Virus record (IMG/VR): IMGVR_UViG_3300035698_006513 | Direction: 5' to 3' (one strand) | Length of the DNA: 64,000 nucleotides | Origin: a virus | Program-made: the position numbers and the translations under genes | The notes under the pieces: generated by a model | Seen by the model: only the letters and a program-made list of their open reading frames with translations | What the model was told of the DNA's origin: nothing | The model's database searches: none | Shown: positions 32,538 through 49,260 of the stretch, in pieces | Numbering within the stretch: position 1 is the stretch's first letter | Layout of the letters: the number at the start of each line of letters is the position of its first letter

Positions 32538-32617
32538 TGGTGGATACGACAGGAATTGAACCTGTGACCGACTATGACCAACTGACCATAGCTGCTCACC
32601 AATTGAGCTACGTGCCC
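32538..32617 (-). ncRNA. tRNA-like RNA with enlarged anticodon arm and encoded CCA
   Basis: GGGCACG/CGTATCC-A-CCA acceptor, D arm GCTC/GAGC, T arm ACAGG-TTCAATT-CCTGT; anticodon region 5 nt too long. Confidence 0.75.
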
Positions 32618-32855: not shown

Positions 32856-32919
32856 CGTCTCGATATAGGATTTGAACCTACCTTCACCGGTATTCTAAGC
32901 CCGATTGAACTACCGAGAC
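32856..32919 (-). ncRNA. 64-nt tRNA-like RNA lacking an anticodon arm
   Basis: GTCTCGG/TCGAGAC acceptor, D arm GTTC/GAAT, T arm GTAGG-TTCAAAT-CCTAT, only 10 nt (ACCGGTGAAG) between D and T arms. Confidence 0.7.
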
Positions 32920-33419: not shown

Positions 33420-33950
33420 TTATTTTGTTCTGAACAGGCTACCCAGTAAGGTCCATTCGTACGAGGATATGTTCCCCGAATGGATAGGTACCGCATCAAC
33501 CGATTTCTTCACAGTAATCGTAATGTTATCGCTAGTAACCCTGACTACACACCAATGGCACTCTTGCTCCAAACCTTCCGGAGTGAATTGCAGTAGCATG
33601 TCATGTGGGCGAGACGCGTTGTCTGAGTCATCACAGTCTATAAGAGACAGTCGTCTATACTGATCCTTATCCACTTCTACCAGCGCATATGGCTGATGCT
33701 CACCATCATGAACCAGATCACTAGGCTCATCACCGCTGGTAGTAGCGTCCTCTATAATGTAGGAGGGTATACTATCAAAACGTGCGTTGGCTACGTCCCT
33801 CCTTACCTCTTGAGCCACCTGTAGCCACATTCGTTTACTTATGCGTATCCCAATCTTCACATCGATATTGTCGTAATCCTCTCGCAGTGGAGCTACTAAT
33901 ACAAAGTACGGTTCGTTGTCTGTGTCTCTGGGTAGTGTGACTTTTCTCAT
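33420..33950 (-). CDS. Paralog-family protein (array 1; lacks C-terminal tag)
   Basis: FVLVAPL...IGIRISKRMW N-terminal motif. Confidence 0.6.
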   Translation of the reverse strand: MRKVTLPRDTDNEPYFVLVAPLREDYDNIDVKIGIRISKRMWLQVAQEVRRDVANARFDSIPSYIIEDATTSGDEPSDLVHDGEHQPYALVEVDKDQYRRLSLIDCDDSDNASRPHDMLLQFTPEGLEQECHWCVVRVTSDNITITVKKSVDAVPIHSGNISSYEWTLLGSLFRTK

Positions 33951-34315
33951 TATGATGATTCCTTATTGAGGTTCTCTGTTTTGAGTGCACGATCAAACTT
34001 ACCATTAAGGAAGGTGATGACTTTTCCTCGCTCACCTTGACGCTTAACCCACTCACACATAGGTACGAACATCTCTTTACAGATGATCCAGTACTTCTTG
34101 CCTAATGCTTCCTTAGCGTTTTCTTCTGGTACAACTTCAGACAATGCACGACTCAGCCACCCAAGTTCTGTATGAGAGACTACTCCATTGAAAAAGGTTC
34201 TCACCAATTCGCGCGAGCTGCGCATAGGTGTATCGCCATTATTGTAGGTATCTTCTGGGAGTACCGTGTCTGGTCCCAAACCAAAAATTAGTGTACTCAT
34301 AGTATCTCCTAACAA
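33950..34315 (-). CDS. Hypothetical protein
   Basis: AGGAG RBS; no family motif seen. Confidence 0.65.
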   Translation of the reverse strand: MLGDTMSTLIFGLGPDTVLPEDTYNNGDTPMRSSRELVRTFFNGVVSHTELGWLSRALSEVVPEENAKEALGKKYWIICKEMFVPMCEWVKRQGERGKVITFLNGKFDRALKTENLNKESS

Positions 34316-34369
34316 GTTGAAATATAAGGCTTCTCCTACAGACGCCTCTTACTCACTTATTACGTATTC

Positions 34370-34789
34370 CTACAGTAGTATACTCATAGGTAATGAAGGT
34401 GGTGCGTATGTAGGAGAAAAAGTACTCTCTCCGAAAGTTAGGATGCACTCCACCGAATAATAACGACTTGCAGTCGCAGCGCCGTGCCATGCAATGTACG
34501 GGATACCACGGTGCAATATTACTCTCCTCGATAAATATTTGTTAGGTAGCACCGTGGTACTCCACCTATCTGATGAATCCTTTATTACTATAGTGAGAGT
34601 GTCTACTTGCATATGTGGGTAGATACAGACCCTGTCAACCGTAGGAAACATGGATATTTCAGGTCTAGCCGTATCTATATCGCTCTTTATACACCGCCAG
34701 GTGTGTATATCTAGTCCTACTCCTATAGTACCTTTACCTGTCGCAGGAACGAGTATTACGTGCTCCCCGTTTCTAGGCATAACATTCAT
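34370..34789 (-). CDS. Paralog-family protein (array 1)
   Basis: VILVPATGKGTIGVGLD; ends SLPMSILL; ATGA overlap sets start at 34789. Confidence 0.7.
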   Translation of the reverse strand: MNVMPRNGEHVILVPATGKGTIGVGLDIHTWRCIKSDIDTARPEISMFPTVDRVCIYPHMQVDTLTIVIKDSSDRWSTTVLPNKYLSRRVILHRGIPYIAWHGAATASRYYSVECILTFGESTFSPTYAPPSLPMSILL

Positions 34790-35277
34790 AGTAACCTCGT
34801 TGCTGGCAGTTGAATACGGGATGGTTCTTCTCGTGTCTGCATATATTCGTTCCATATAAGTTGCATATCGCCTATATCTATCCTCTTCGATATATGACCC
34901 CCGCACGAAATACTCCACTGGTTGCGCTGAAAGCATATTTGTTTAGGCGCTCTGTGCTGAGATAGACTTCTTATCTTAGATATGTCTTTCATCTTGTATA
35001 ATGTGTTAGTACATAAGCCGTAGAAACCTAGATTACCGCTAATATGAAACGCGGAGTTGAAGTCTAAATCATAATGACCGTAGTATCCCGCTTCCATGCC
35101 CTCTGTAATAATGGTCATTATGGTATCCCACACGAAGGGAAGGAACTTAATAACGAACACAGGGTCATGTGACAGACCCTGTGTTAGTACAACCAAGTCA
35201 TTTCTCTTTGGGAGTGTCCATACTTCTTTTATGGACTTCGTCAGACTGTGCCTATATTCAGGGTACTCTCGATTCAT
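34786..35277 (-). CDS. Paralog-family protein (array 1)
   Basis: Ends RIQLPATRLL. Confidence 0.7.
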   Translation of the reverse strand: MNREYPEYRHSLTKSIKEVWTLPKRNDLVVLTQGLSHDPVFVIKFLPFVWDTIMTIITEGMEAGYYGHYDLDFNSAFHISGNLGFYGLCTNTLYKMKDISKIRSLSQHRAPKQICFQRNQWSISCGGHISKRIDIGDMQLIWNEYMQTREEPSRIQLPATRLL

Positions 35278-36143
35278 ATGAGACCTCCTATATTACGAGG
35301 TAATTTAACCTCGCCTAAGTCTTCCGCTTCTTTGTCATCTTCGGGACCATCTTCCCCACCGTATATAGTTATCCTTCCAGCGTTCTCCATAGCGGATAGT
35401 TGGTTGAGTCTACCCATATTTATATGGGCCATAGTTCTCCACAGAGATCCGAGCTCATCTGCGGTAGCTCGGATCTCTCCACTTGCAGCGTCTAGGCTAG
35501 GTACAACTGCTACATTTTCTTCTACATAGCTACAAAAAGAGTCGAAAATAGAACTATTGCTAAGCTCACCTATGACCGGTGTGGGTGGCGTAAGCCGTGC
35601 TGGTCCGCGATGTAGAAACTCCCCCGGTACCTGCATAGCTGCCATGATTGCGTCCGAAGTGTAAATGTCGTTATCGGGACCTGACGCCCTAACATTAGAT
35701 AGATCTACAGTGGCACCGATATGCGGTGCATTTACCCGCTCAAAGTCTACTACTCCACGCGAAGGTACTGTAAGGAATGTCTCATAGCTGTGTGGTGTGG
35801 TGGAGTATAACTCGCCCCCAACTCGCACCTCCCACACCAAGTACCGTGTATGAAACACACAGTGCAATTTCTCCAGTACATATGATACGCGAGGCGCTCC
35901 CGGATTTCTGGTAACTACACTAACCGGAACATCTAAAGTACTGCAGTCATCCTCAATCCTCACTGTTCCAAGATCACTATGTTCTGCAGATAGCGTGGAT
36001 AGAAACGTTTCTATTATGTTGAAGCTATTAAATTGTACATCAGATATTCTTACACGTAGACTGAAATCCGCAACACTCCCATCCTCAGTACGTACAGGCA
36101 TCAATATGCTTCTACATAGCCCTGACACTCTAAATACACTCAT
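35274..36143 (-). CDS. Paralog-family protein, extended (array 1)
   Basis: SILMPV...LRVRISD; ends EVKLPRNIGGLI. Confidence 0.7.
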   Translation of the reverse strand: MSVFRVSGLCRSILMPVRTEDGSVADFSLRVRISDVQFNSFNIIETFLSTLSAEHSDLGTVRIEDDCSTLDVPVSVVTRNPGAPRVSYVLEKLHCVFHTRYLVWEVRVGGELYSTTPHSYETFLTVPSRGVVDFERVNAPHIGATVDLSNVRASGPDNDIYTSDAIMAAMQVPGEFLHRGPARLTPPTPVIGELSNSSIFDSFCSYVEENVAVVPSLDAASGEIRATADELGSLWRTMAHINMGRLNQLSAMENAGRITIYGGEDGPEDDKEAEDLGEVKLPRNIGGLI

Positions 36144-36241
36144 GCCATCTCCTTACTTTTATGTAAAACACAAACATCTCGAAAAGAACATTGATCTAAA
36201 TGTTTGTTATCTACCTCTTCTGCCCATTTCACCGTACGTAA

Positions 36242-36796
36242 TTATAGTGTTACGTGAGGAATGTGTAATTGGTGTGGTACTTGCTCCATAAGGCAAGACA
36301 TCTCAGGTAATGCCAGGACAACACTGCGAGAATGTCTCGCAGTGTTTACTACACATCCGTGTAGCAGAACTGACCACCAAAGTTCTCCCTCTTTTCCGAA
36401 ATGCAGGTAAGCACTTGTGTGATTCACTACAGTTCTAACGCGAATACTTGCCCATTCAAATGCACTAGACGATGCGCTACTACCCGCCTCGCCACATAGG
36501 TACTCAAGAGATGTACCAGAGTACATATCCAGTATCATATTATGTTCAACGCTACCGAACTTAACCACAAAACCTTGTTTGTTTACATTATACGCGTGTG
36601 TCAGGCTCGTAAACGGTATATTCTGATGATGAGATTTACTCTCTTTACTCATACGTGCAGCAGCATCACTCATTTCAACTAAATACATGATCTTGTCGAG
36701 TGTCAACTTTACGTACACAGCGTATTCCACTCTATTACCCCGTCTTTGTGGCCCATCACTTTCTGCTCTCAAACCCAACCTGATATACTTAGCCAT
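36242..36796 (-). CDS. Paralog-family protein (array 1)
   Basis: VYVKLTLDKIMYL; ends QLHIPHVTL. Confidence 0.7.
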   Translation of the reverse strand: MAKYIRLGLRAESDGPQRRGNRVEYAVYVKLTLDKIMYLVEMSDAAARMSKESKSHHQNIPFTSLTHAYNVNKQGFVVKFGSVEHNMILDMYSGTSLEYLCGEAGSSASSSAFEWASIRVRTVVNHTSAYLHFGKEGELWWSVLLHGCVVNTARHSRSVVLALPEMSCLMEQVPHQLHIPHVTL

Positions 36797-36861
36797 ATCA
36801 TCTCCTTGCGAAACACCTATCCTAGTGTTTTTGTTAATCTATAGCACAAAGCGAAACTTCT

Positions 36862-37380
36862 CTAAACTACCACAATGGGAATATGAGGCTCTTGGAGTAT
36901 CTCCTGTACCTCTTGCTCTATGTGCTCTACTAATTTTAGTAGAAAATCTAGAGCCGTCCTCGTAAGTCCCGCGGATACACCTTTATCTATAGAGACGCGT
37001 AAACTATTTTCTAAGGAACGTACGCGTAATATAGGAATGACGATATCACCCCTCTTAGGGTCGTACTCAGTATAAGCGGCGTAAGAAGAGTTGTACTTTA
37101 TCTCTAATGTTCCCGATCTATCTATAGCTACCACCGTTCGTAACGGAGTATTGTTAAATAGACCAGGGCAGAATACCCCGTCTGAGTGGCAATTACGCAT
37201 CCTGCCTTGCATTACAAGATCCACAAACATCTCCGCGCGCCTCATATCACTGCCCGAACCGCGCATGAAGTTATAAGATGCGTCCATGATACTTAGTAGA
37301 CCACGTACCCCATCCGCAGTAAGGTCTAATATCAGTGTACGCTGTCCTCTAGTAGGTATACATACTCTCACGGTGTTCAT
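36862..37380 (-). CDS. Paralog-family protein (array 1)
   Basis: VRVCIPTRGQRTLILDLTADGVRGL; ends EPHIPIVVV. Confidence 0.75.
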   Translation of the reverse strand: MNTVRVCIPTRGQRTLILDLTADGVRGLLSIMDASYNFMRGSGSDMRRAEMFVDLVMQGRMRNCHSDGVFCPGLFNNTPLRTVVAIDRSGTLEIKYNSSYAAYTEYDPKRGDIVIPILRVRSLENSLRVSIDKGVSAGLTRTALDFLLKLVEHIEQEVQEILQEPHIPIVVV

Positions 37381-37386
37381 AATAAC

Positions 37387-37914
37387 TCATGGCCTCACTA
37401 ACGGTAATTGTACTGTGGGTACAATATTATCTCGTTCAAGTCTCAGGCAAGACAGGACTATAGCTATCTCTTCTGGAAATATCTGCTCCGATTTTCCTAA
37501 ACCATCCACCTCCCAGTGCACACACTCACTAGAGAACACTATAGATGAGTTAGTATCTTCGTACTCCTCTACACCATCACACACATTACCCTGCGTCACT
37601 CCAACTACATCGCCATTGGTACCTGTATCCACACCTACGGATATAGAGTACAATGACCTATTTTGCATATACCCAGGCAGGTATATATAAGGAGCACGTC
37701 TAATTATCACTCCGCTATTTTCGTACTTTGTTGCGTACAGACGCAACTGACGTAATGCGTAGTTATAATATATATCTATCATATTCGTTATCATGTGCGT
37801 CCACATAGTCAGCTGTGGCTTATCTACCCTGTGCAATAGAGTGTGCTCTGTGCCTATAGGAACTGCCATCATCATTGTAGGAAAGTTATCACTATCTTGT
37901 GGCAAATCAGTCAT
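37387..37914 (-). CDS. Paralog-family protein (array 1)
   Basis: MMAVPIGTEHTLLHRVD; ends TVQLPLVRP. Confidence 0.7.
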   Translation of the reverse strand: MTDLPQDSDNFPTMMMAVPIGTEHTLLHRVDKPQLTMWTHMITNMIDIYYNYALRQLRLYATKYENSGVIIRRAPYIYLPGYMQNRSLYSISVGVDTGTNGDVVGVTQGNVCDGVEEYEDTNSSIVFSSECVHWEVDGLGKSEQIFPEEIAIVLSCLRLERDNIVPTVQLPLVRP

Positions 37915-38545
37915 ACTTATAATCCTCTACACCCTGCAGTACAGCAAACCTGTGTATACGAATCCACTGTTCGTCTAGTCTTGCGTCTGATGCGTCCAGA
38001 TTATATGGACCAGTAAACGCACTCTCTACGAAATCTCGTAAAAACTCCCCTCCTACGATAGGCTGAGGTGTGTTTGTGTGCTTCAACATCAGATTTATTG
38101 TGGATGACGCTGTATTATCTGCGTGCGGATATGAGTAATCTAGGTCTACGCGTTTCATACCCATACCTGCGTACCACTTTGCCTGTCTGTCCTTTGCCTC
38201 CAATACAATCCAATCAAATTGCGGATGGTTTGCGTACGAGTTTACTACATACGAAAACACCTCTGACCCATATCCACGTCCTTGTACGGTTGTGCACATA
38301 GACAGGTATGACAGCAGTACGTATTTGTGTTTGATGTTCTCGTGCACTACGTAAAAACCTATTATACCCGTCTTCATTCGCACAATATACACTTTATACA
38401 CTTTCTTGCGGACAGATTCTGTCATACTGCGGATAGATTCACGTTCCCGTGCAGGAAAGACGTCTCCGTACATAGAAATAAACGTTGACCATGTGAATCC
38501 GTACGCTTTATGTAGCTGTTTTATCGTTAAACGTCCCATACTCAT
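37907..38545 (-). CDS. GNAT-family N-acetyltransferase
   Basis: Acetyl-CoA motif LSYLSMCTTVQGRGYGSEVF; IVLE; WYAGMG. Confidence 0.85.
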   Translation of the reverse strand: MSMGRLTIKQLHKAYGFTWSTFISMYGDVFPARERESIRSMTESVRKKVYKVYIVRMKTGIIGFYVVHENIKHKYVLLSYLSMCTTVQGRGYGSEVFSYVVNSYANHPQFDWIVLEAKDRQAKWYAGMGMKRVDLDYSYPHADNTASSTINLMLKHTNTPQPIVGGEFLRDFVESAFTGPYNLDASDARLDEQWIRIHRFAVLQGVEDYKYD

Positions 38546-38636
38546 CCCCTATTGGTTATAGTTGTACGACATCTTGTACCTGTTACGTCCCGCAATATTA
38601 TTCTCTATTGCTTATAATTAAGGTAGCGGATATTAT

Positions 38637-41600
38637 ATGGGTAACTCAGTTCGCTACCCCAAAACTACGTTAACGGAGAAAGATATGCCTACATACCCAA
38701 TTTCATGGCCCGAGGAACTCACTCACCACATAGCTACGCATTGGTTTAATGAGGAATTTTCTATCCTAAGAGAGAGTCTGAGGGGAGCATTTCTTTCTGT
38801 TGAGGGTAAAATCGCAGGTATGCCTATTAAAGGCACAGTAGATGTAGCAACAGTATCTGTATTAACTGATACACCTGTTTACGACAATACTGCAGGTACG
38901 CTGACTGCTGCAGGAACAGCCACAATAACACCCATAGACGGAATCACACTCGTTGTAGGAAGCCGCATACTGGTTAAAGATCAGGTAGACGCAAAACACA
39001 ACGGATTATACGTAGTTTCTGTTCTGGGGGATGGCGCTACTGTAGGTTATGTACTCACTCGCTCTGTAGACGCAGATGAGTCCGTAGAACTGACAAACAA
39101 TATGATTGTTGGTGTTAGAGTAGGGACTATCAACGATGACAAGAGATTCCAACTCACAACCGACGACGCTCCTATAGTGATAGGGACTACCGACTTGGTA
39201 TTTGAAGAGTATACCGGCGGCGGGACTATGTGGGTAGACATAGGATCTGATACTGCAGCGGTCACAGGGTCCGGGTATCTAATATCTGCTGCTAGTAATC
39301 CCGTAGACCTGACTTTACCCTTGGCACCTAATGTCGGTGACCAAGTAAAGGTCAAAGTTTACGACGTTACGAATCCTGTAAACGTATTAAGGAACTTCGC
39401 GAACATACAGGGAGCAGCCAGTGACTACCCTGTAACAAATCTATCTGGATTCTCACTTGTCTACGCAGGCGCAACAGAAGGATGGACAATAACAGACAAT
39501 ATTATTGTACCTCCGATACTAACTGCAGACCAGATAGCGTCATTCCCTGTAGGGGCTAGTGCTATCAATCCATTAGCACTTGCGTCAGACGCACGATTCC
39601 CTACTACGGATGAAAAAGCGTCATTTCCTGCAACAGCCAGTGCAGCATTACCTTTGGCACTGGAGTCTGATACGCGTTTCCCCACTGCTAACGAGAAAGC
39701 ATCATTCCCTGCTGGAGCAACAGCAATAAATCCTCTGGCGCTACTATCAGACATTGAGGGGTTAGAGTGGACGGTCATATCTGCAGATACGCTCGCTGTC
39801 AATAAAATCGGGTACATGATAGACGGATCTACTTCTACCGTAGACCTAACTCTCCCACTAGGACCTTCTGTGGGAGACATTGTTGGTGTCGCCGCTTTCA
39901 ATGTAACTAACACAGTTCGGGTTATGCGAAACGGCAGCAACATCAAGAGTATAGCAGACGATATAGAGTTGGATGTGGAATCTGGGTTTACCTTGGCCTA
40001 CACTGGAGCTACTGCAGGTTGGATTTTAGTTACTGAGATTTCGGGTGGTGAAACAATAGCTACGGTATTTGACGGTATATACTGCGTTAAAGGCACAGTC
40101 ACCACTAAGCATGACACGATTGCCGCCGCCTTAGTCGTCGCTGGTGGGTCCGGTCTCGTGTTAGTAGGACCGGGGTCCTACGCAGAATCTATTACTATAG
40201 ATGGAGATGAGACTGTTAAGTCGTTAGGTGGCGCTAACGTAACTTCAATTACAGGCGCTGCTGCTACTGGAGCTCGGGTAACATTTGCGGGGACTAATTC
40301 CAAGATAAATGGTTTTAGTATACTTCAACCCACAGATGCTACTCCTGCTATTCTTCATAATCATGCAGGTGTTAGTACCGCTAAAGACTGCTTCCTTGCA
40401 GGATCCGGGGCAAGCGGTAAAGGTGTATCCTTAACCGGTGCAGGGACTATGATTGGTTCTGGCATCACTTACGTTTCTGGTACATGCGATACAATATTTG
40501 AAGTAGACGGTGTCGGACACATGACAATCAACAACTTCTCTGTCATAGGGGCAACTGCTGCTGCAGCATTTAGTGCTAGTGGTGGAGGTAAACTATCAGC
40601 CCAGACAGGAAGTATTTCCTCTTCTACACTTACTGATGGATTCTTAGTTGCAGATGGGGATGTTACTATTGGCGAAGTCAATTTCCTAGACACAGGAACA
40701 ACTGTCAATGGTATTCACGCTACACACGCAGATTCACATATTGACGCTCACGGTATCAATATGGAGACAAATGTAGATAACCACATTTTAGTAGACCCTG
40801 CAATCATTCCTACAGCAGTTCATGTTTCGTCTGCGGATCTTATACGAGATAGAATTAGTTACGATGCAGCTGCAGCAGTAAGCGTCGCGATCCAATTCTC
40901 TGATTCTACAGAAGGAGATGTTGGAACCTGTTTTCATGGTGAAGTAGCTGTGGGTAGACCTGAAAATGGAAATGAGTTAATCGCAGGTGAGGGCGATTCC
41001 TATACCAGAGGTATGCAGGTACTAACGACAGACGGAACGGCTGACGCCACTACAGATGGTGGAAATCTTACAGACGTTTCCGCTGCCGCAGCTTCAGCTA
41101 GTGGGTCTACATTCACGTTCCAAGATGTAACCGCAGGTCATGCCATTATCGTAGGGTCATCTCTTTCGGGGGATACTGACGTACTCAAGCACTGGGGACT
41201 GAAGACCTCACAAACGACTGCTGCGGTTGAAGTTACTAAACGCTCATTCTTGGTAGAGAAGTCGACAACAGCTGGATGGACTCCCGTCGGAGTTATGACC
41301 ACACACTCCAGTAATTTTTATCGGTACGCGAATGAGCTCTTTATTCGCACGAACACCTCCGAGCACCTACGATATGGTCTGTCTGCTGAGTCGACATGGA
41401 ATAAGCGGACTATTAACGGCGATAATCTGTACTGGATGCGTATACGCATTCTTACTACGGTAACTACCGCTCCTGTGTTCGAGCAGTTCAAGTTATCCTC
41501 CAACCGTTTTGAAGCAAATGGGGACGGAACCAACACGTATCACGGTAATAGTCGCTACATTACTACCCTCCAAGGAATCGGTAATATATTTGCAGAATCA

Positions 41601-42131
41601 GGTGGAGTTGTTAATGGTAATATAGCTGTTGGATCAGGCGGTCTACCCACTGGTTGGAATCATGAATACCTAAACGCAGAACTGAATGCAGATGGCGATG
41701 CCACATATATGCAATTCAACCTACCTCGCGGTATAGACACGTCATTCCCCCTAGAAGTCGACCTGACTTACGGATTAGATGTCCAGAGTGCCACACCAGC
41801 AAGTCTGATTATGTCCCTTATTCCTGTAGAGGTGGCCGGTGTGATTGAGGCGGACCCAAGTGGAGGGACGGCACCAATCGCAAGAACTCTAGGCGAAACA
41901 GAAACACTCACAGGCAAAGTTGGCTATAGCGACACTCAGTCTATCGATGTTTCAGACTCAGACAAACTCCAGAAGACCACCTTCACAGGTTTTGACGTTT
42001 CCTCTTACTATGAGGGGGATATGTGTTTCGTCCGACTAGAGGGGGATAACATCAATACATCTGATATTATTATATTCTCCTTGGGTTTCCGTACGGTGTT
42101 CTGGACCAACGGTGAGCATCTAAACCTCTAG
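38637..42131 (+). CDS. Large tail fibre / virion adhesin-like protein
   Basis: RILVKDQ..NGLYVV..LTRS.DAD module; two copies of 'VDLTLPLxPxVGD' domain; 23-aa repeats; beta-helix-like middle. Confidence 0.75.
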   Translation: MGNSVRYPKTTLTEKDMPTYPISWPEELTHHIATHWFNEEFSILRESLRGAFLSVEGKIAGMPIKGTVDVATVSVLTDTPVYDNTAGTLTAAGTATITPIDGITLVVGSRILVKDQVDAKHNGLYVVSVLGDGATVGYVLTRSVDADESVELTNNMIVGVRVGTINDDKRFQLTTDDAPIVIGTTDLVFEEYTGGGTMWVDIGSDTAAVTGSGYLISAASNPVDLTLPLAPNVGDQVKVKVYDVTNPVNVLRNFANIQGAASDYPVTNLSGFSLVYAGATEGWTITDNIIVPPILTADQIASFPVGASAINPLALASDARFPTTDEKASFPATASAALPLALESDTRFPTANEKASFPAGATAINPLALLSDIEGLEWTVISADTLAVNKIGYMIDGSTSTVDLTLPLGPSVGDIVGVAAFNVTNTVRVMRNGSNIKSIADDIELDVESGFTLAYTGATAGWILVTEISGGETIATVFDGIYCVKGTVTTKHDTIAAALVVAGGSGLVLVGPGSYAESITIDGDETVKSLGGANVTSITGAAATGARVTFAGTNSKINGFSILQPTDATPAILHNHAGVSTAKDCFLAGSGASGKGVSLTGAGTMIGSGITYVSGTCDTIFEVDGVGHMTINNFSVIGATAAAAFSASGGGKLSAQTGSISSSTLTDGFLVADGDVTIGEVNFLDTGTTVNGIHATHADSHIDAHGINMETNVDNHILVDPAIIPTAVHVSSADLIRDRISYDAAAAVSVAIQFSDSTEGDVGTCFHGEVAVGRPENGNELIAGEGDSYTRGMQVLTTDGTADATTDGGNLTDVSAAAASASGSTFTFQDVTAGHAIIVGSSLSGDTDVLKHWGLKTSQTTAAVEVTKRSFLVEKSTTAGWTPVGVMTTHSSNFYRYANELFIRTNTSEHLRYGLSAESTWNKRTINGDNLYWMRIRILTTVTTAPVFEQFKLSSNRFEANGDGTNTYHGNSRYITTLQGIGNIFAESGGVVNGNIAVGSGGLPTGWNHEYLNAELNADGDATYMQFNLPRGIDTSFPLEVDLTYGLDVQSATPASLIMSLIPVEVAGVIEADPSGGTAPIARTLGETETLTGKVGYSDTQSIDVSDSDKLQKTTFTGFDVSSYYEGDMCFVRLEGDNINTSDIIIFSLGFRTVFWTNGEHLNL
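39520..39750 (+). repeat. About three 69-bp (23-aa) tandem repeats ASFPxGAxAxxPLALxSDxRFPTxxEK
   Basis: Visible in DNA (GCGTCATTCCCTG / GCGTCATTTCCTG / GCATCATTCCCTG) and in protein. Confidence 0.85.
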
Positions 42132-42140
42132 GAGAATACA

Positions 42141-42560
42141 ATGGTCTTGAAAATAAGCGAACTCTACCCTAAGTCTGTACTAGCTGCGAATGCTAGCACG
42201 GTGACGAGCAGTTTTAATAGCAATTTATCTGCTGCTGATCCCGTTGTGCAATCAGCACTTGAAACTCTAGATGATAAACCTATCATCACTTCTGATCAGG
42301 CAGCTGCATTTCCAACTGGTGCTGACGCAAGCAATCAGCTTTTAACAAGTGGCAGATATGAGAACGACCTATCGGCTGTCGTTGATGCTACCAGACTTCA
42401 AAGTGCTACCTTTACTGGCTTTGACATTTCTAAATACTATGAAGGAGATATGTGTCTTGTTCGTGTAGATGGGAATAGCATTGGTTCTGCCGATATTATT
42501 ATTATGTCACTTGGGTTCCGTGCTGCCCATTGGACACATGGCGAACACCTAAACGCATAG
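42141..42560 (+). CDS. Mosaic mini-fibre protein built from parts of both neighbours
   Basis: N-terminus matches 42570 ORF; C-terminus matches 38637 ORF. Confidence 0.7.
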   Translation: MVLKISELYPKSVLAANASTVTSSFNSNLSAADPVVQSALETLDDKPIITSDQAAAFPTGADASNQLLTSGRYENDLSAVVDATRLQSATFTGFDISKYYEGDMCLVRVDGNSIGSADIIIMSLGFRAAHWTHGEHLNA

Positions 42561-42569
42561 GAGATTATT

Positions 42570-43397
42570 ATGGCTCAGAAAATTAGTGAACTTTTCCCAA
42601 ACTCTGTTCTTGCGGCTAATGCCAACACAGATACTAGTAACTTTGATACCAAACTTTCGGTAGCAGACACAACGGTACAAGCTGCACTTGAAACTCTTGA
42701 TGCCCATGTTGGTGTAGCTCTTAAAGGTTTTTACGATGTTACTGGCTCAGCAGGTAGTGATCAAGATATAGCTGTTCCTGCTGGCTCAACCTCTTTTAAA
42801 TTCAGAGGAGTGGCAGCAGGTGGTGGTGGAGGTGGAGTAGGTGCTTTCTACGATAAAGGAGGCGGTGGAGGCGCTGGAGAGTATGGTGAAGGATATCTGC
42901 TGGGTTTGACAGGAGTAACTCATGTTCGTATAAATCTTGGAACAGGTGGAGTAAAAGCTGCAGCTACTAATCAGCGTGGAGGGACTGGCGGAGATACCGT
43001 AATTTCTAAAGTGATAGCAGCTACTCCTACTTTACTGGCAACTTTGAAAGGAGGCACTGGTGGGGCATCTGGTGATGACTATGGCGTAGCAGGCCCTGGT
43101 GGTACCGGTGGTACTGTACCAATTAACTCTTTTCTTGTTGATGGGCCAAATGGTAATGACGGACGGAATTCAGGAACGACAGTGAATCATCACTATTACT
43201 TAGGAAATGGAGGTAATAGTAAATTAGGTAGTGGTGGGAAATCAGGATCAGATCGAATAGGAGCGGGGGCAGGTACTGGAGATGTAGCGACTGTTGGTAA
43301 ATATGGTGGTGGAGGCGCTGGCGGGATATACGATACAGTTGTTTTTGATCCATCTGCTGCTGGAGATGGCCGAGTTATTCTAGAATTCTTTGGGTAA
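42570..43397 (+). CDS. Glycine-rich tail-fibre-associated protein
   Basis: AAGGGGGG, GGGGAGEY, GGGGAGG, GDGRVILEF glycine-rich domain pattern. Confidence 0.75.
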   Translation: MAQKISELFPNSVLAANANTDTSNFDTKLSVADTTVQAALETLDAHVGVALKGFYDVTGSAGSDQDIAVPAGSTSFKFRGVAAGGGGGGVGAFYDKGGGGGAGEYGEGYLLGLTGVTHVRINLGTGGVKAAATNQRGGTGGDTVISKVIAATPTLLATLKGGTGGASGDDYGVAGPGGTGGTVPINSFLVDGPNGNDGRNSGTTVNHHYYLGNGGNSKLGSGGKSGSDRIGAGAGTGDVATVGKYGGGGAGGIYDTVVFDPSAAGDGRVILEFFG

Positions 43398-43553
43398 AAT
43401 GAGGTGTAATGATGAGTCAGAGTTGATCCTTTCTTTAGTTATCTTCCATCCTCAGTTCAAGTTTATGTCTCGTATCCAAACTCTACTGTCCGAGCAAACT
43501 CTACCATCCAGCACGGTGTCGAATACGTCGCGTAGCAGACACGCGTACCCAAT

Positions 43554-43600
43554 CAGCTAAAAAGAAGACGATCCCTCCTCCGTACTCGTCTTTTTAGCTG
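43554..43600. terminator. Bidirectional terminator between convergent units
   Basis: CAGCTAAAAAGA..GACGA / TCGTCTTTTTAGCTG inverted repeat. Confidence 0.6.
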
Positions 43601-43897
43601 TTATACGCGAACCGGAGGCAGACTCACTTCCCCTTGTCTAGGTCCGCATAGGATACGCCAAGCCTCAAGCAAGCATTCTCCTTTATCCACAAACATATTC
43701 CCCGTAATCTCTTGGTATCTCAAGAAAGATAGCCATTTACCTTCCACAGGGAAATACGTACAGAAATAATCAGGTCGCACTTTCTGGATAGCCCTGAGTA
43801 TTCTCTCCTTGCTGTTTACCTCTCTCTGAAGATCTGAGCAACAGGATCCGTTGTAGCATCGCCTATCCGTGGCGTAGTGTAGTCTCGGTTCTTTCAT
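43601..43897 (-). CDS. Hypothetical protein
   Basis: GGAG RBS; ends VSLPPVRV, a tag-like C-terminus. Confidence 0.6.
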   Translation of the reverse strand: MKEPRLHYATDRRCYNGSCCSDLQREVNSKERILRAIQKVRPDYFCTYFPVEGKWLSFLRYQEITGNMFVDKGECLLEAWRILCGPRQGEVSLPPVRV

Positions 43898-43931
43898 TGT
43901 ACATCTCCATTCGTTCTACTAGTGAGTATCC

Positions 43932-44084
43932 TTATATAAACACCTGCGGCATTTGAGCCACTCTCAACCTAGAATCTTCCTCCTCTACGATTAAGTTGTG
44001 AAGGTAACGTATGTCATCCGCACTCAAATTCAGTATCAAAGACACTTCCTCGCGCACAGGTATGACTAATTTCATTGTGTCCAT
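43932..44084 (-). CDS. Minimal 50-aa paralog-family member (not in ORF track)
   Basis: Own translation: MDTMKLVIPVREEVSLILNLSADDIRYLHNLIVEEEDSRLRVAQMPQVFI. Confidence 0.75.
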   Translation of the reverse strand: MDTMKLVIPVREEVSLILNLSADDIRYLHNLIVEEEDSRLRVAQMPQVFI

Positions 44085-44086
44085 GC

Positions 44087-44605
44087 TTATATCCTTACCT
44101 GCGGTACGCGCAATGTACCTATATTCTCCACGTCATCCAGTGACTGCAGCAGTTCGCACAAAAAGCGTAATACCGACATACCGATAGTATGAGATACTTC
44201 ACTTCCCTGTCTCCATACCATAAAAGTTCCATGCATCCGTACACGCACATCTCTAATTCCTGCGTATATAGTATTGTTCTCGTAATATTCTGCCGTACGC
44301 TCTGCTGCTATATTGTGTATTACGTAATCAGACTCTGGTAATCCCCGTGATACACTGCGGATGTCCGCATGACCAAACATACCCATCACATGTGTGTACG
44401 GAGACCACCTATTCAGTCCACAGTAGGTATTAACTTCAGGGGAAGCCTCTACCAATACACGCGAAACGCCATTACATGGCTGCGATTTTATTTCAGCCGC
44501 ATAGCGTATTAAACGCAGCCATGTTTTCAGTGTAGATGCGTTTATGTCCTGTATTATAGAAAAGCAGTCACTGACGGGTATGATTAGTTTACGTGTTACA
44601 GACAT
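44087..44605 (-). CDS. Paralog-family protein (array 2)
   Basis: RKLIIPVSDCFSIIQDINASTL; ends TLRVPQVRI. Confidence 0.75.
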   Translation of the reverse strand: MSVTRKLIIPVSDCFSIIQDINASTLKTWLRLIRYAAEIKSQPCNGVSRVLVEASPEVNTYCGLNRWSPYTHVMGMFGHADIRSVSRGLPESDYVIHNIAAERTAEYYENNTIYAGIRDVRVRMHGTFMVWRQGSEVSHTIGMSVLRFLCELLQSLDDVENIGTLRVPQVRI

Positions 44606-44877
44606 TATATCACCACCTGTGGTAATTGTACGTCTGCATTACTGTGTTCCGCGTCTAATCCTGTTAGTATATCTAGCAACAGTACCCATACGCACGCGGG
44701 TATACGCCGAGACGCAACGTCTAGACGCATATAACGCAACCTCGTACCCACAACAGCCGCACGTGTACACACATGATCCATCTCTGTTAACAGCATCGCC
44801 ACCAGCTCTGCTGTAAGATTTATTACTAAGGTCTGTACCGTACCAACAGGTATTACCAGACGCATAGGTTCAGTCAT
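44605..44877 (-). CDS. Short paralog-family protein (array 2)
   Basis: MRLVIPVGTVQTLVINLTAELV; ends DVQLPQVVI. Confidence 0.75.
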   Translation of the reverse strand: MTEPMRLVIPVGTVQTLVINLTAELVAMLLTEMDHVCTRAAVVGTRLRYMRLDVASRRIPACVWVLLLDILTGLDAEHSNADVQLPQVVI

Positions 44878-45503
44878 ATTATCACCATCGGTATACTGGG
44901 TTTGTGTATTATATCCGGCTCAGACGCAGATGGTATACGTTGGTACAAATAATCCAATTCATTCTTACTCATACACATTGTTCTGTGCTTCTCTGGATAC
45001 CCATTCGCCGTGCTTACTATACCCATACCCAGCATAATACCCGATTGACCCGATTGACTCGTTAGCGTTACAGATGAAAGACGTCGTACTAGTACACTAT
45101 CCGCATCAGAGTGTCCGTCTCGGTATGTCTGTAACGTGGGCGCGGTTAACTCTGAGTTCAGATGCAAATACGTGTAATCTTCCATTGACTGCAGATACGC
45201 ATCATTTAAATTTATATCCATACGTGGGTCTGTATGCAGTACGCGTGAGTACGATAATGGTATTTCTGTCATCATATAAGTAGACAGGTCAGTACACCGT
45301 ACGCTTAATTCCGGCCTAACTAAGTCCCTGCCTCCCAGTGTATCCGCAGCTACTTTAGTAGCAATCATAAGCTCTTGCCAACTGCTTATTACGCTATGTG
45401 TAACAGCCACCAACAAAGACAAATCATCTCGGTCATCCATCGCCATTGCTGCATACAAAACCGGCTCTTTGTAATCAAACACATCTTTCTCCTTTATGCG
45501 CAC
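44874..45503 (-). CDS. Paralog-family protein (array 2)
   Basis: LSLLVAVTHSVISSW; ELDYL; ends KPSIPMVII. Confidence 0.7.
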   Translation of the reverse strand: MRIKEKDVFDYKEPVLYAAMAMDDRDDLSLLVAVTHSVISSWQELMIATKVAADTLGGRDLVRPELSVRCTDLSTYMMTEIPLSYSRVLHTDPRMDINLNDAYLQSMEDYTYLHLNSELTAPTLQTYRDGHSDADSVLVRRLSSVTLTSQSGQSGIMLGMGIVSTANGYPEKHRTMCMSKNELDYLYQRIPSASEPDIIHKPSIPMVII

Positions 45504-45576
45504 AAACGCAAATCCGCGCGTTTCATCCGCACACTCTACATGAAATGCGTTTATATGACTTTAGGTACATACGCAT

Positions 45577-46107
45577 CTATCCGCACATAAACGGTGGTAT
45601 CTGTATCCGCTCTATTGGCTCAGCGCAGTCCTCTTCCTCCATTACATCAAGTAGGTAGTCTAGATTATCTCGCCACAGTACATACGTGTTCTGTGGTGGG
45701 TTAGCGTTATATGAGATTGACCAGACTATTCCATCCTTTGCTTCGTCAGACACATACTTTATCTCGTACTTACAAGAAAGAGACTGGTTAAGACTTTTCA
45801 ACACATACGCGTCTAGTGTAGGTATACCAGGTATATCCTGTGGGTCATTTAAGTCTACCGTCTTATTGTCAGTAAGATATAGAATACCGGGCGTACCTAT
45901 ACCTGCGAACCTATACTTGGTGCGCTATACATCAGTTATAGAACAGTTAGTACAACTAGACCATGCGATTCCATCCGTCAACTCCTCTAGCAAGTCTATA
46001 ATACGGATACACTCTTTTACAAACGCAGTGTCTATATCTATCAACAGCGACTCCGCAACGTAAAAGTAATCGTCCAGGTTTAACATTAACTTTCTACGCA
46101 TAGACAT
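45577..46107 (-). pseudogene. Paralog-family gene interrupted by one in-frame TAG (45925-45927)
   Basis: The two track ORFs share a frame and the intervening 120 nt are open; ends RIQIPPFMCG. Confidence 0.75.
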
Positions 46108-46115
46108 CTCCTTCC

Positions 46116-46295
46116 TTATAATAAGTTACCTACATTAGGTAGCTGTACGGCTCCTACCACTTCACTTCCAGTCTCCGGAGACTCTTGCATGTTCCGCACT
46201 ATCATATCGTGTACAGCCATTAACTCATACAGATTTAAACTGTATGATGCATAATCGCTCAAACCTAACATCGGTAACAATAGGTTATAATCCAC
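46116..46295 (-). CDS. Minimal 59-aa paralog-family member (not in ORF track)
   Basis: AGGAGG RBS; MDYNLLLPMLG...LNLYELMAV...AVQLPNVGNLL. Confidence 0.65.
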   Translation of the reverse strand: MDYNLLLPMLGLSDYASYSLNLYELMAVHDMIVRNMQESPETGSEVVGAVQLPNVGNLL

Positions 46296-46309
46296 AGCTC
46301 ACTACCTCC

Positions 46310-46861
46310 TTATAGCAACAGTATGTTAGGTAAGACGGGAGTCTGTATTGTCTCAGTAGTCCTTTGCGATGTGGGACCGTACTCTTCAAATCTACATATC
46401 GTGCTATATATCAATTCTAGTGTACCCATATACATGTGTATAGATTTGAAGATTGTGCCATTGAACAAGGAGCACCAATACAATACGCAATTACCTTCCC
46501 ACCTTGAACAGGTAATACTCATGCCGTCTAATGCACTTACTGTTACAGGAGGCATTATATTGAACATACCAGGCACACTGCGTAGGTGTGCTCCAGCAAG
46601 ATCATACGTAGAATCACCATCACCAGAAAATATTGAAGCTGTAGGTAGACACATAGAGGAAATCGAGTACGCATTCAGCGTATTATCAACACAGTAGAGG
46701 TCTTTCTGCGTCAAATTATGTGTAGTTTGTGTGTCTATCAGCGACGTGTACGCACCAATCATAGATTTTAAGTAGTTCATGTACGAGGAAGAAAGTTTGA
46801 TACAGATAGTACTTCCGGTTGACCATCTTGTTGGGACAGCAAGATAATATTGCATAGGCAC
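46310..46861 (-). CDS. Paralog-family protein (array 2)
   Basis: YYLAVPTRWSTGSTICIKLSSSYMNYL; ends TPVLPNILLL. Confidence 0.75.
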   Translation of the reverse strand: MPMQYYLAVPTRWSTGSTICIKLSSSYMNYLKSMIGAYTSLIDTQTTHNLTQKDLYCVDNTLNAYSISSMCLPTASIFSGDGDSTYDLAGAHLRSVPGMFNIMPPVTVSALDGMSITCSRWEGNCVLYWCSLFNGTIFKSIHMYMGTLELIYSTICRFEEYGPTSQRTTETIQTPVLPNILLL

Positions 46862-46863
46862 TC

Positions 46864-47105
46864 CTATATAATAGGTACAGATGGCATCGAAACACTACTA
46901 TATGGTGCCGACGCATTCATCTTTCTCCGAATACCCATGAGTGTAGATATATATACAATACACGTAGTTACATGTACCAGCCTACCTTCTCCAAGGTCTG
47001 CTCCATCATCTCCCGCCAGTCCGCTATCTCCTCCATAGTAACTGGTAGTAGAATATTCTTGTGCATAGGATCTTGCGTACCTAGCAAAACATGTATCTTT
47101 TCCAT
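46864..47105 (-). pseudogene. Frameshifted paralog-family member
   Basis: AAAGGAG-ATG 47105 gives MEKIHVLLG...NILLPVTMEEIADW, stop at 46968; the tag VSMPSVPII lies in another frame ending 46864. Confidence 0.6.
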
Positions 47106-47203
47106 TACTTACTCCTTTATGCAAAAAAATACCCCTCATACCATTGCTTACCTGTGATTATAGGTATGAGGGGTCTACTCACTCTCTTGTTACACATATG
47201 ACA

Positions 47204-48463
47204 CTAACACTTCTCCACTCCACCACTTTCAATGACACGGAGTATCTTCGACATATCATCCTCATTGTAGGAGTCGGCCCTGCGTTCTATGATACTAACC
47301 GCAAGTACCGCGGCCTCGCTCATATTGTGAAGCCGGTTTTCGTACAGTTCTGCATCTACTATCAGTGATTTTATGTCTCTACTTGCAGAGGCAGCCAACT
47401 CCTCTACTCGCCCTAACATACCCATATCTGCCAATGCTGCATCGACTGCCTCAATAGGCATATTCACGGCGTCATCAAGATCTTTGTCCTCTTCTGCATC
47501 GAAGAAGTCTATAATGTCTGCCTCCTTCACATATAGATCCTCGATCGATCTCACCTTCTTCTGGCTGCGTACGGGGATCTCCGTATTTATAGCAGATCTT
47601 AACCATGACTTCAGGAACGGCATTGCGTATCGAAATACGACATCACCTTCACTCTTCGAGGTGAACTGTATCTGGAGAAGTGGTATGGCATCATTGTAGT
47701 CAGGTATCTTGGTAAGAAGAACAGTAGATATTTCTACCCCATCACCTTTATTAGGGGGTGACCCTACGAGGAAGTAGTTGACTTCTTTAGAATCGGAGGG
47801 TAACGACACGGATCTTTCGATATGTTTGTAGTCTTGTCTACTGTGGGTACAGTAAGACATGATTACGTCGCATACTCGCACTTGAGACGCACACAACGAA
47901 ACTGTATTCCCTCGCGGACAGCGTCCGGGGTCCACTAATGCGCCCAATGCGTCTACATCTAACTCTGCCCATATAGACTTGTTCTCCCCTTCGATGGGAG
48001 CCCACACTTGTATGAACTTGTTCGCTACCTCTTTCTCGTGGTCCAGAATAGTCTGTAACAAGTACGAGAATGGTACGAACACACTCTCTACTACGACTGC
48101 GTTTAGTAGTACGACATACACATATGCACCTAGCTCACCCATCACCAAGAAACTTGACGAAGGAATCTCTTCTCCTTTATAAGGAGAAATACCATCTCGC
48201 CATTTTCCCAGGTCGGCTGACGACATAATGTCCGCAGACACCATGCTATCAAGCATTCTTCTGAATTTTCTATCTGAGAGCGGTAGTCTCAGAACAGAAG
48301 GAACCTTCACACCACTTACCACACAAGACGATAGTGAGAGATTAGCGCAGGCAATCTCTCCACTCAGCATTCCCTTAGCCAAGGGCAGATGCTCAAAGGG
48401 AATCGAGCACTGAATTGATTTATTATCATTCGTAGGTAGCCACACTCTTAGATCTTTACTCAT
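47204..48463 (-). CDS. Protein with two tandem family-like domains and acidic helical tail
   Basis: LRVWLPTNDNKSIQCSI and IQVWAPIEGENKSIWAELDVDAL. Confidence 0.65.
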   Translation of the reverse strand: MSKDLRVWLPTNDNKSIQCSIPFEHLPLAKGMLSGEIACANLSLSSCVVSGVKVPSVLRLPLSDRKFRRMLDSMVSADIMSSADLGKWRDGISPYKGEEIPSSSFLVMGELGAYVYVVLLNAVVVESVFVPFSYLLQTILDHEKEVANKFIQVWAPIEGENKSIWAELDVDALGALVDPGRCPRGNTVSLCASQVRVCDVIMSYCTHSRQDYKHIERSVSLPSDSKEVNYFLVGSPPNKGDGVEISTVLLTKIPDYNDAIPLLQIQFTSKSEGDVVFRYAMPFLKSWLRSAINTEIPVRSQKKVRSIEDLYVKEADIIDFFDAEEDKDLDDAVNMPIEAVDAALADMGMLGRVEELAASASRDIKSLIVDAELYENRLHNMSEAAVLAVSIIERRADSYNEDDMSKILRVIESGGVEKC

Positions 48464-49130
48464 AACTTTTTCTCCATACCAAACTGTTTTCTCCATCTAA
48501 CACTACTCCGCGCTCTGCCTCTATAGCAGTTTCGCGTATGACTTTAACCGGGTGCTTACACAACCACAACCTCAGCAGTAATGCTGGGATAATACCTGTG
48601 TGCACCTCATCCGCCCCCATCCGTGTACGAAAGTACATTGCTGTCCTCAACAATGCAACTTGTGGTCTCTTCATCTCATACATGTAATTTGGGATGTCCA
48701 TCTCTTTGAGACCATTCTCCATTATAGATCTCTTAGATTTCCTCATTATCTTCCTACCTTCGGTAGACTCATACATATCCAGGAGGCATGTACTTAATTT
48801 ATCCGAACCCGGTGTAAGATCCTCCAGTAATACACGGCCATTTCCTTTCATGGAGAGCTTCTTTGCAGTAGCGTTGCATAACCCCAGCGGCACCACGTGG
48901 GGACTATCATCCTCAAAGGAGGACTCTATTCCATTAAGCCAATCCATTGCTACATCCGCTGTAAATGCCACGCACATGCACGATTCCGTTGGAGATCCTA
49001 TTATCCGCAATAGGACGTGGTACTCATACCACTGGTGCATCACTAGGTTTTCGTACTCATCTACGTCAATGTCCTGTCGGGGGCTGCGTAAATACGCGAT
49101 GAATTCATCGGTATGCACTATTTTACTCAT
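48456..49130 (-). CDS. Hypothetical protein, probably family-related
   Basis: VLLRIIG...MCVAFTADVAMDWL. Confidence 0.6.
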   Translation of the reverse strand: MSKIVHTDEFIAYLRSPRQDIDVDEYENLVMHQWYEYHVLLRIIGSPTESCMCVAFTADVAMDWLNGIESSFEDDSPHVVPLGLCNATAKKLSMKGNGRVLLEDLTPGSDKLSTCLLDMYESTEGRKIMRKSKRSIMENGLKEMDIPNYMYEMKRPQVALLRTAMYFRTRMGADEVHTGIIPALLLRLWLCKHPVKVIRETAIEAERGVVLDGENSLVWRKSYE

Positions 49131-49260
49131 TTTACTCTCCCGTCATAAGTAATAATGGGAACCTGTATCTAATCTCTTATGCCAGTTAACGCTATATTTT
49201 GTGGAATAAGGACGTAAGGACCAAATACTTAATATTTCTACATTGATAAGGAGTAAGTCA

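Follow-up and report, generated by a model that had tools for sequence, protein, structure and literature searches.

The DNA considered here, a window of 64,000 nucleotides (nt) taken from the IMG/VR virus record IMGVR_UViG_3300035698_006513, is part of a large uncultured phage, and between positions 33420 and 49130 it carries two arrays of mostly small minus-strand genes, which raise the question of whether such dissimilar proteins belong together and what their shared parts may serve. The arrays constitute one lineage-specific multigene family of 15 to 17 members, organized in two co-directional operons (A and B) that are split by a tail-fibre module, and the family proteins are small, soluble and probably non-structural. 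The existence of the family, its architecture and the selection acting at the protein level on its C-terminal tail are established. About 15 genes are secure members, while the membership of those at 33950-34300 (A7) and 48456-49130 (B0) is doubtful, and approximately 9 kb of genome is devoted to the family. Paralog expansions this large are rare in phages, whose genome space is limited, and where they occur they usually signal the front line of interaction with the host. The members are designated by the names given in Table 1 or by their lower coordinate.

The C-terminal tail is the strongest shared feature of the family. It follows a polar or acidic linker and has the consensus phi-x-[LIVM]-P-x-[VI]-x-[IVL]-COOH. 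Among 400 open reading frames (ORFs) of at least 40 amino acids (aa) in six frames, the strict pattern [LIVM]-P-x-[VI]-x-[IVLP]-stop was found in eight, all eight of them within the two arrays, against 0.16 expected from random internal positions. When a position matrix was derived from these eight tails in a leave-one-out manner, seven of them scored at least 9 bits and three further genes (46864, 34370 and 46116) were added at 8 bits or more, giving ten ORFs at or above 8 bits versus 0.45 expected per 400 ORFs. Looser tails, in which the phi-P unit lies one to four residues farther from the end, were found in 36242, 34786, 35274, 45577 and 46310, and the motif is specific to the C-terminus, with about two truly internal copies in the array proteins. 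The 12 residues preceding the tail are enriched in D/E/S/T/P/G/Q/N (fraction 0.56 versus 0.44, a value reached by none of 2000 random samples) and are net negative in 12 of the 15 members, while anything from 6 to ~150 residues, polar or acidic, separates the last helix from the tail; in A4, the tail is separated from the folded part by ~150 aa of acidic low-complexity sequence. The ending phi-x-phi-COOH, which is a class II PDZ-type ligand pattern, occurs in 9 of 15 tails, and no PDZ protein was found among the window proteins. The tails of A1 (37387-37425) and A3 (36242-36285) each carry two tandem phi-P units (VPTVQL-LPLVRP and VPHQLH-IPHVTL, respectively), as if locally duplicated.

The nucleotide sequence underlying the tail is not itself conserved, since its proline is encoded by CCT, CCC, CCG or CCA and its valine by GTA, GTG or GTT. 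Moreover, the tail is kept on B10, which has no gene downstream, and on A2 and A3, which are followed by gaps of 65-98 nt containing separate ribosome-binding sites. The codon variation and the persistence of the tail in the absence of a downstream gene indicate selection at the protein level rather than a DNA or ribosome-binding-site signal; in the case of B10, the last gene of its operon, the tail cannot be a ribosome-binding site.

At the opposite end of the proteins, an earlier note on this DNA, the title of which gave no more than a hint of the tail, had described a shared N-terminal motif in array ORFs that look unrelated in DNA, and both observations were borne out. No repeats of 14 nt or longer are shared among the array ORFs, and the pattern [LIVMFWAC]3-P-[LIVMTA] occurs within the first 30 residues of 11 of the 20 array genes, compared with 2 of 76 other ORFs of at least 110 aa; as this pattern was picked after seeing the data, the binomial P of ~7e-11 is only indicative. 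In blastp comparisons, the N-termini of 36862, 43932, 44605, 44087 and 45925 match mutually (E 1e-4 to 0.03 in a 400-ORF database), the N-terminus of A2, the closest bridge between the two arrays, being 41% identical to that of 43932 (B9). With leave-one-out hidden Markov models (HMMs) of this N-terminal module (N-module), 43932, 44605, 36862 and 46310 ranked first of 800 targets, reversed decoys included, and 44087 ranked second. Taken over blastp and the leave-one-out HMMs, N-terminal significance was reached only by 43932, 44605, 36862 and 46310, and marginally by 44087. Two members, 44087 (B8) and 44605 (B7), were folded with AlphaFold2 from an input alignment of 12 paralogs only, and in both the N-module was predicted as strand-turn-strand-helix: E5-10, E16-21 and H23-41 in B8, with a predicted local distance difference test score (pLDDT) of 70-77, and E5-11, E15-21 and H23-43 in B7, with a pLDDT of 81-88. 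In both models, the tail is a low-confidence coil that is not packed against the remainder. The model of the whole 172-aa protein reached a mean pLDDT of 50 and a fold-search Z of no more than 3.4; Foldseek against viral and PDB libraries returned nothing at E <=0.001, and no usable feature matches came from the ESM Atlas models, which were low in confidence.

In addition to the two ends, a late strand and helix recur in part of the family. In a joint alignment, the last ~50 residues of ten members form one block, in which an h-x-W-x-h strand is followed by a glycine turn, a second short strand, an L-x-x-L helix, the linker and the tail. In HMMs built from this block with each member left out in turn, 44874, 45577 and 44087 ranked first and 36862, 44605 and 46116 second. 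The late h-x-W strand with LxxL helix that had been noticed earlier is thus real and aligns in one block, although it is a weaker feature than the other motifs, being present in 6 of 19 array genes versus 5 of 70 others (P = 0.01). The N-module and late C-terminal profiles are unlike each other, their hhalign E of 0.08 being equal to that of reversed controls. The common order of parts is N-module, variable core, often the late hairpin-helix, linker and tail; in B9 (50 aa) and B4 (59 aa), the core is missing and only N-module, linker and tail are present. Tail and N-motif are independent of each other, nine members having both, six the tail only and two the N-motif only. The proposal of an expanded, diverged family built on a common scaffold is supported insofar as the N-module, the tail and the order of parts are shared and a beta-beta-alpha unit was modelled in two members. 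The earlier note would have given up this proposal had the members lacked profile similarity and differed in predicted fold; similarity between profiles was detected, and the folds predicted for the two members agree, so that the rapidly diversifying anti-defence or host-takeover library suggested in that note stands as a hypothesis.

The family is an orphan, as its own profile finds only its own proteins. A 127-position profile of 12 members searched against 1.84 billion representative proteins had no outside match, and the ten matches that it did return correspond in lengths and order to the proteins of this window. When 44087 or the 419-aa member (B1) served as the query of a word-based search, only that query was recovered. 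No significant match for the family was found in Pfam, PHROG or PDB sequences, in agreement with the earlier statement that it could not be assigned to a known family, and ten members compared with Pfam at E up to 5 matched no family, including the COMM domain PF07258. Likewise, the genes flanking the arrays had no relatives in viral contigs or metagenome contigs, and the two largest window proteins matched nothing in GenBank phages. The public runs that contain the array region are salt-lake metagenomes, and in four of them this region is identical letter for letter. The array family is new, without homologues in the collections searched, and what it appears to be, a library of phage accessory proteins marked by one terminal label, has a precedent in T4.

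As regards function, the interpretation favoured here, which we hold tentatively and at a little under even confidence, is that the fixed ends dock or assemble, the tail acting as a docking or address peptide, the N-module in assembly and the core in specificity. In the common order of parts, the fixed beta-hairpin and helix of ~40 aa at the N-terminus may be an oligomerisation or beta-augmentation element, and the variable core of 0 to ~250 aa would give each member its own target. A second hairpin (h-x-W) with an LxxL helix often follows, and after a polar, mostly acidic linker the eight-residue hydrophobic tail would tether the protein flexibly to a single common receptor, the candidates being a phage or host hub or the N-module of the family itself. 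A docking or address function is favoured because the tail is a short hydrophobic C-terminal peptide that follows a variable polar or acidic linker, is unpacked in the models and is confined to the family. We infer a freely docking tail, a single receptor and a role of the genes in host interaction. If the tail is indeed a docking or address peptide, it could be used as bait for the receptor and as a search key for all cargo in this and related phages.

Such a design has known counterparts. The ClpX-binding tail of SspB, the acidic tail of SSB ending in IPF and the C-terminal sliding-clamp motifs are tethering peptides that follow flexible linkers. In common with them, the array proteins have a hydrophobic C-terminal peptide after a polar or acidic flexible linker, a design that in those systems docks on one hub, but their tails fit none of the SspB, SSB or clamp consensus motifs. 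The sliding-clamp motif (QL[SD]LF / QLxLxL), which has a near-invariant glutamine and hydrophobic residues at positions 2, 4 and 5/6, was rejected on inspection, since no more than 6 of the 15 tails have a glutamine, proline invariably occupies position 3 and the hydrophobic spacing is 2-5-7 instead of the 2-4-6 of QLxLxL. Sortase and exosortase signals (LPXTG and others), in which the motif precedes a membrane span and a basic tail on proteins with a signal peptide, were also rejected, as only 3-6 residues follow L-P, there is no membrane span and the translations show no N-terminal signal peptides. Poxvirus ankyrin/PRANC families likewise combine a variable binding body with a fixed C-terminal docking element; PRANC, which is F-box-like, folds into a domain of ~40 aa and has Skp1 as its binding partner in eukaryotic hosts. 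Both cases involve a paralog expansion with a fixed C-terminal element, and the likeness is one of functional analogy only, with no homology.

Several observations weigh against the docking interpretation and the family on which it builds. Homology across all members is not demonstrable by sequence, the leave-one-out HMMs backing about 8 of 12. Because the models were made from 12-paralog alignments, the low confidence of the tail is weak evidence that it is free, and its alternating hydrophobic residues would also suit a structural edge strand. Furthermore, the collections searched contain no relatives in which the tail could be seen to be conserved. Finally, the resemblance of the N-module to COMM domains, discussed below, lies below a meaningful level when taken alone, and Foldseek found nothing.

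The main rival explanation is that the ends are purely structural, the C-terminal strand pairing with the N-terminal hairpin of the same chain or of a swapped dimer, with the cores inserted between them and no address function. We consider this unlikely, although hydrophobic residues do alternate in the tail as they do in a beta strand, a phi-P-phi element is present at both termini and the smallest member, a beta-beta-alpha unit plus tail, could make a three-stranded sheet on one helix. Against it, AlphaFold2 leaves the tail unpacked in both models, albeit at low confidence, and the distance from helix to tail, over polar or acidic residues, ranges widely. In addition, the two ends do not always go together: the tail occurs with a decayed or absent N-module in B2 and B10, and the N-module occurs without a tail in A8 and B1. 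Even if the ends were only structural, the family would still be a natural example of a mini-scaffold that tolerates cores of 0 to ~250 residues.

A distinctly unlikely explanation is that the tail is an encapsidation signal, by which the proteins would be packed into the phage head and leave it together with the DNA on ejection. The HK97 protease carries a C-terminal encapsidation tail, and the arrays adjoin virion genes. Encapsulins, which have the HK97 fold, load cargo into their shell via short C-terminal peptides, which bear no sequence likeness to the array tail (PMC7355545). The internal proteins of T4 (IPI, IPII, IPIII and Alt), a diverse defence-countering set, are likewise diverged small proteins that share only one short terminal targeting peptide, and the variable remainder of each is believed to engage a range of targets in the host (PMC3012670). 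However, the T4 capsid targeting sequence is N-terminal, is cut off by the head protease and has been proven to direct prohead loading, whereas the array tail is C-terminal. The array family also differs in having a second conserved element, the N-module, and in lacking the L-x-K-x-A-(S/A) site that is the candidate head-protease code; a T4-type capsid targeting sequence at the N-terminus was rejected for the same lack and because the N-motif sits in the modelled hairpin. The T4 internal proteins are rich in lysine, whereas most family members are acidic or neutral (isoelectric points of 4.1-8.8, net charges of -19 to +4), which leads us to lean weakly against a virion-cargo role, and the arrays and the tail-fibre genes are transcribed in opposite directions.

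Two further explanations look for the partner of the conserved ends within the family. In the first, which is improbable, the tail would be the ligand and the N-terminal hairpin-helix its socket, so that ~15 paralogs could be linked to one another in mixed chains or rings, or to one hub, as a combinatorial scaffold displaying many cores; the 50- and 59-aa members would then act as caps or competitors. If true, it would represent a new type of modular assembly in viruses. The second, which we regard as quite improbable, is that the members assemble together into mixed rings or chains, either through N-modules that pair in a COMM-like manner or through tails plugging the hairpins of neighbours. 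Co-assembly would be favoured by the tight translational coupling within the operons, the two conserved elements are restricted to the family, and COMM domains make up five of the ten best structural neighbours of the N-module. COMM domains are reported to form obligate dimers and hetero-decameric rings of ten paralogs (PMC13392464), and COMMD paralogs also combine a small shared assembly domain with a variable one. Nevertheless, the alignments of the modelled N-module with the strand-strand-helix part of COMM domains (8f2u, 6bp6, 8esd and 9q6a; VIA-align Z of 3.7-4.0 over 44-46 residues, root-mean-square deviation 1.9-2.8) fall within the chance range, as Z <=4.0 does for a 45-residue beta-beta-alpha unit. 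The Foldseek E-values were 5-8, and no COMM match was obtained in Pfam at E up to 5. Moreover, COMM domains have a sheet of three strands plus a helix, form an interlocked dimer and are C-terminal, whereas the N-module has two strands and a helix, is N-terminal and has no sequence or Pfam match to them. The COMM likeness of the modelled N-module is accordingly treated as a lead and not as a finding.

It is very improbable that the tail is a hydrophobic C-terminal degron or timing tag for a host or phage protease, by which the gene set would be cleared together. ClpXP-type and Tsp-type proteases classically recognise hydrophobic C-termini that follow flexible linkers, and the phi-x-phi-COOH ending of 9 of the 15 tails would suit them. 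On the other hand, the tails have no likeness to the LAA-type degron, neither the conserved proline five residues from the end nor the conserved N-module would be needed for a degron, and there is no protease in the neighbourhood. As for the view that the shared ends are a by-product of nucleotide signals, such as ribosome-binding sites of the next gene or recombination joints, the last codons at some junctions (GGTGGTGATA, GTGAGG) do double as Shine-Dalgarno sequences for the next gene, and tandem paralog clusters can reportedly evolve via units spanning gene junctions (PMC2568036), but it is scarcely tenable, being largely refuted by the synonymous codon variation and the persistence of the tail described above, and the junctions contain no DNA repeats.

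Table 1. Coordinates of the array genes and of neighbouring features in the window
Feature	Position	Strand	Description
A1, 175 aa	37387..37914	-	N-motif MAVPI, VHWEV strand, tail VQLPLVRP
A2, 172 aa	36862..37380	-	N-motif VCIPT, tail HIPIVVV
A3, 184 aa	36242..36796	-	degenerate N-module, LWWSV strand, tail LHIPHVTL
A4, 289 aa	35274..36143	-	N-motif ILMPV, LVWEV strand, ~150 aa acidic low-complexity sequence, loose tail KLPRNIGGLI
A5, 163 aa	34786..35277	-	weak N-module, loose tail IQLPATRLL
A6, 139 aa (corrected start)	34370..34789	-	ATGA overlap with A5; N-motif ILVPA, tail SLPMSILL
A7, 116 aa	33950..34300	-	without clear family motifs; doubtful member
A8, 176 aa	33420..33950	-	N-motif LVAPL, CHWCVV strand, no tail; last gene of operon A
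B0, 224 aa	48456..49130	-	opens operon B; resembles the N-module only in an internal stretch (CMCVAFTADVAMDWL), no tail; doubtful member
B1, 419 aa (corrected start)	47204..48463	-	two N-motifs, internal tail-like EIPVRS, acidic helical C-terminal extension, no terminal tail
B2, 91 aa	46864..47139	-	tail VSMPSVPII, no N-module
B3, 181 aa	46310..46855	-	N-motif LAVPT, LYWCS strand, loose tail TPVLPNILLL
B4, 59 aa	46116..46295	-	minimal member: N-module, linker and tail VQLPNVGNLL
B5, 176 codons in one frame	45577..46107	-	broken by one TAG; tail IQIPPFMCG
B6, 209 aa (perhaps 202 from an inner GTG with ribosome-binding site)	44874..45503	-	N-module without proline, tail PSIPMVII
B7, 90 aa	44605..44877	-	N-motif LVIPV, tail VQLPQVVI
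B8, 172 aa	44087..44605	-	N-motif LIIPV, MVWRQ strand, tail LRVPQVRI
B9, 50 aa	43932..44084	-	smallest member: N-module, short linker, tail AQMPQVFI
B10, 98 aa	43601..43897	-	tail VSLPPVRV; last gene of operon B, no gene downstream
GNAT-like gene	37907..38545	-	heads operon A; below Pfam threshold; not a family member
Tail-fibre module	38637..43397	+	1164-aa fibre, 139-aa protein and glycine-rich 275-aa protein; between the arrays
Hairpin of ~15 bp flanked by A-runs and T-runs	43554..43600	-	directly after B10, between the convergent tail-fibre module and array B
GGCATAAG	49176..49183	-	candidate phage promoter element, 46 nt upstream of B0

The array ORFs are real, densely packed genes, joined by ATGA or TAATG overlaps or by short spacers with GGAG-type ribosome-binding sites. 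From the reading of these junctions, two starts were corrected, the 34370 gene beginning at 34789 (139 aa) and the 47204 gene at 48463 (419 aa), a length equal to that of the database gene call; with these corrections the array proteins range from 50 to 419 aa, much as had been estimated (50 to about 420). The N-motifs of B1 lie at residue 7 (VWLPT..NKSI) and residue 153 (VWAPI..NKSI), and the protein looks like a fusion of two members. The previous description of two copies in this one gene holds at the motif level and does not extend to the halves as a whole, which are not significantly alike (P = 0.14). In B5, the TAG at 45925-45927 is preceded by the N-module and followed by the IVWSI strand, a helix and the tail, so that the ORFs at 45925-46107 and 45577-45804 are a single gene in a single frame, the second piece having no ribosome-binding site. 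This TAG is part of the sequence identical in the four runs, and the same letters are found in the contig of an independent run. TAG is the ordinary stop of at least five genes near B5, and no CUA anticodon, as a suppressor tRNA would require, was found among the tRNA-like genes. B5 is probably a fresh pseudogene, or possibly a read-through gene.

The two minus-strand operons lie on either side of the plus-strand tail-fibre module. Operon A comprises the GNAT-like gene at its head and then eight array genes down to 33420, and operon B comprises eleven genes from 49130 and ends at 43601. The GNAT-like gene is translationally coupled to the first family member, A1, its stop overlapping the A1 start by 8 nt, and a functional link between the two is possible. 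The hairpin that follows operon B is likely a two-way terminator shared with the convergent tail-fibre module. At the other end of this operon, GGCATAAG on the minus strand and GGAATAAG on the plus strand (49203-49210) stand back to back in a divergent spacer that heads both array B and the plus-strand gene at 49243. The corresponding motif, SGHATAAG, has 23 occurrences in the window versus 11.7 expected, approximately a twofold excess, and no enrichment was found for sigma-70-like promoters.

In the tail-fibre module, the 1164-aa protein matches PHROG and GenBank tail fibres. Its gene contains three tandem repeats of 81 nt (27 aa) at 39522-39724 on the plus strand, and a fourth similar copy is found on the same strand at 42288-42328, within the next gene (42141-42560). 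Other recognisable genes of the window encode a ribonucleotide reductase, a thymidylate kinase, a RecA-like protein, a methyltransferase and tRNAs, and most of the remaining window proteins had no match in the protein comparisons run. A third tRNA gene at 32541-32617 on the minus strand scored 45 bits with Rfam and was missed by ARAGORN, its anticodon loop being of 12 nt instead of 7 nt. Between the Met and Leu tRNA genes, a 63-nt tRNA-like element (32857-32919, minus strand; Rfam 21 bits, E 0.1) has a good T-arm and almost no D-arm, and may be a decayed tRNA.

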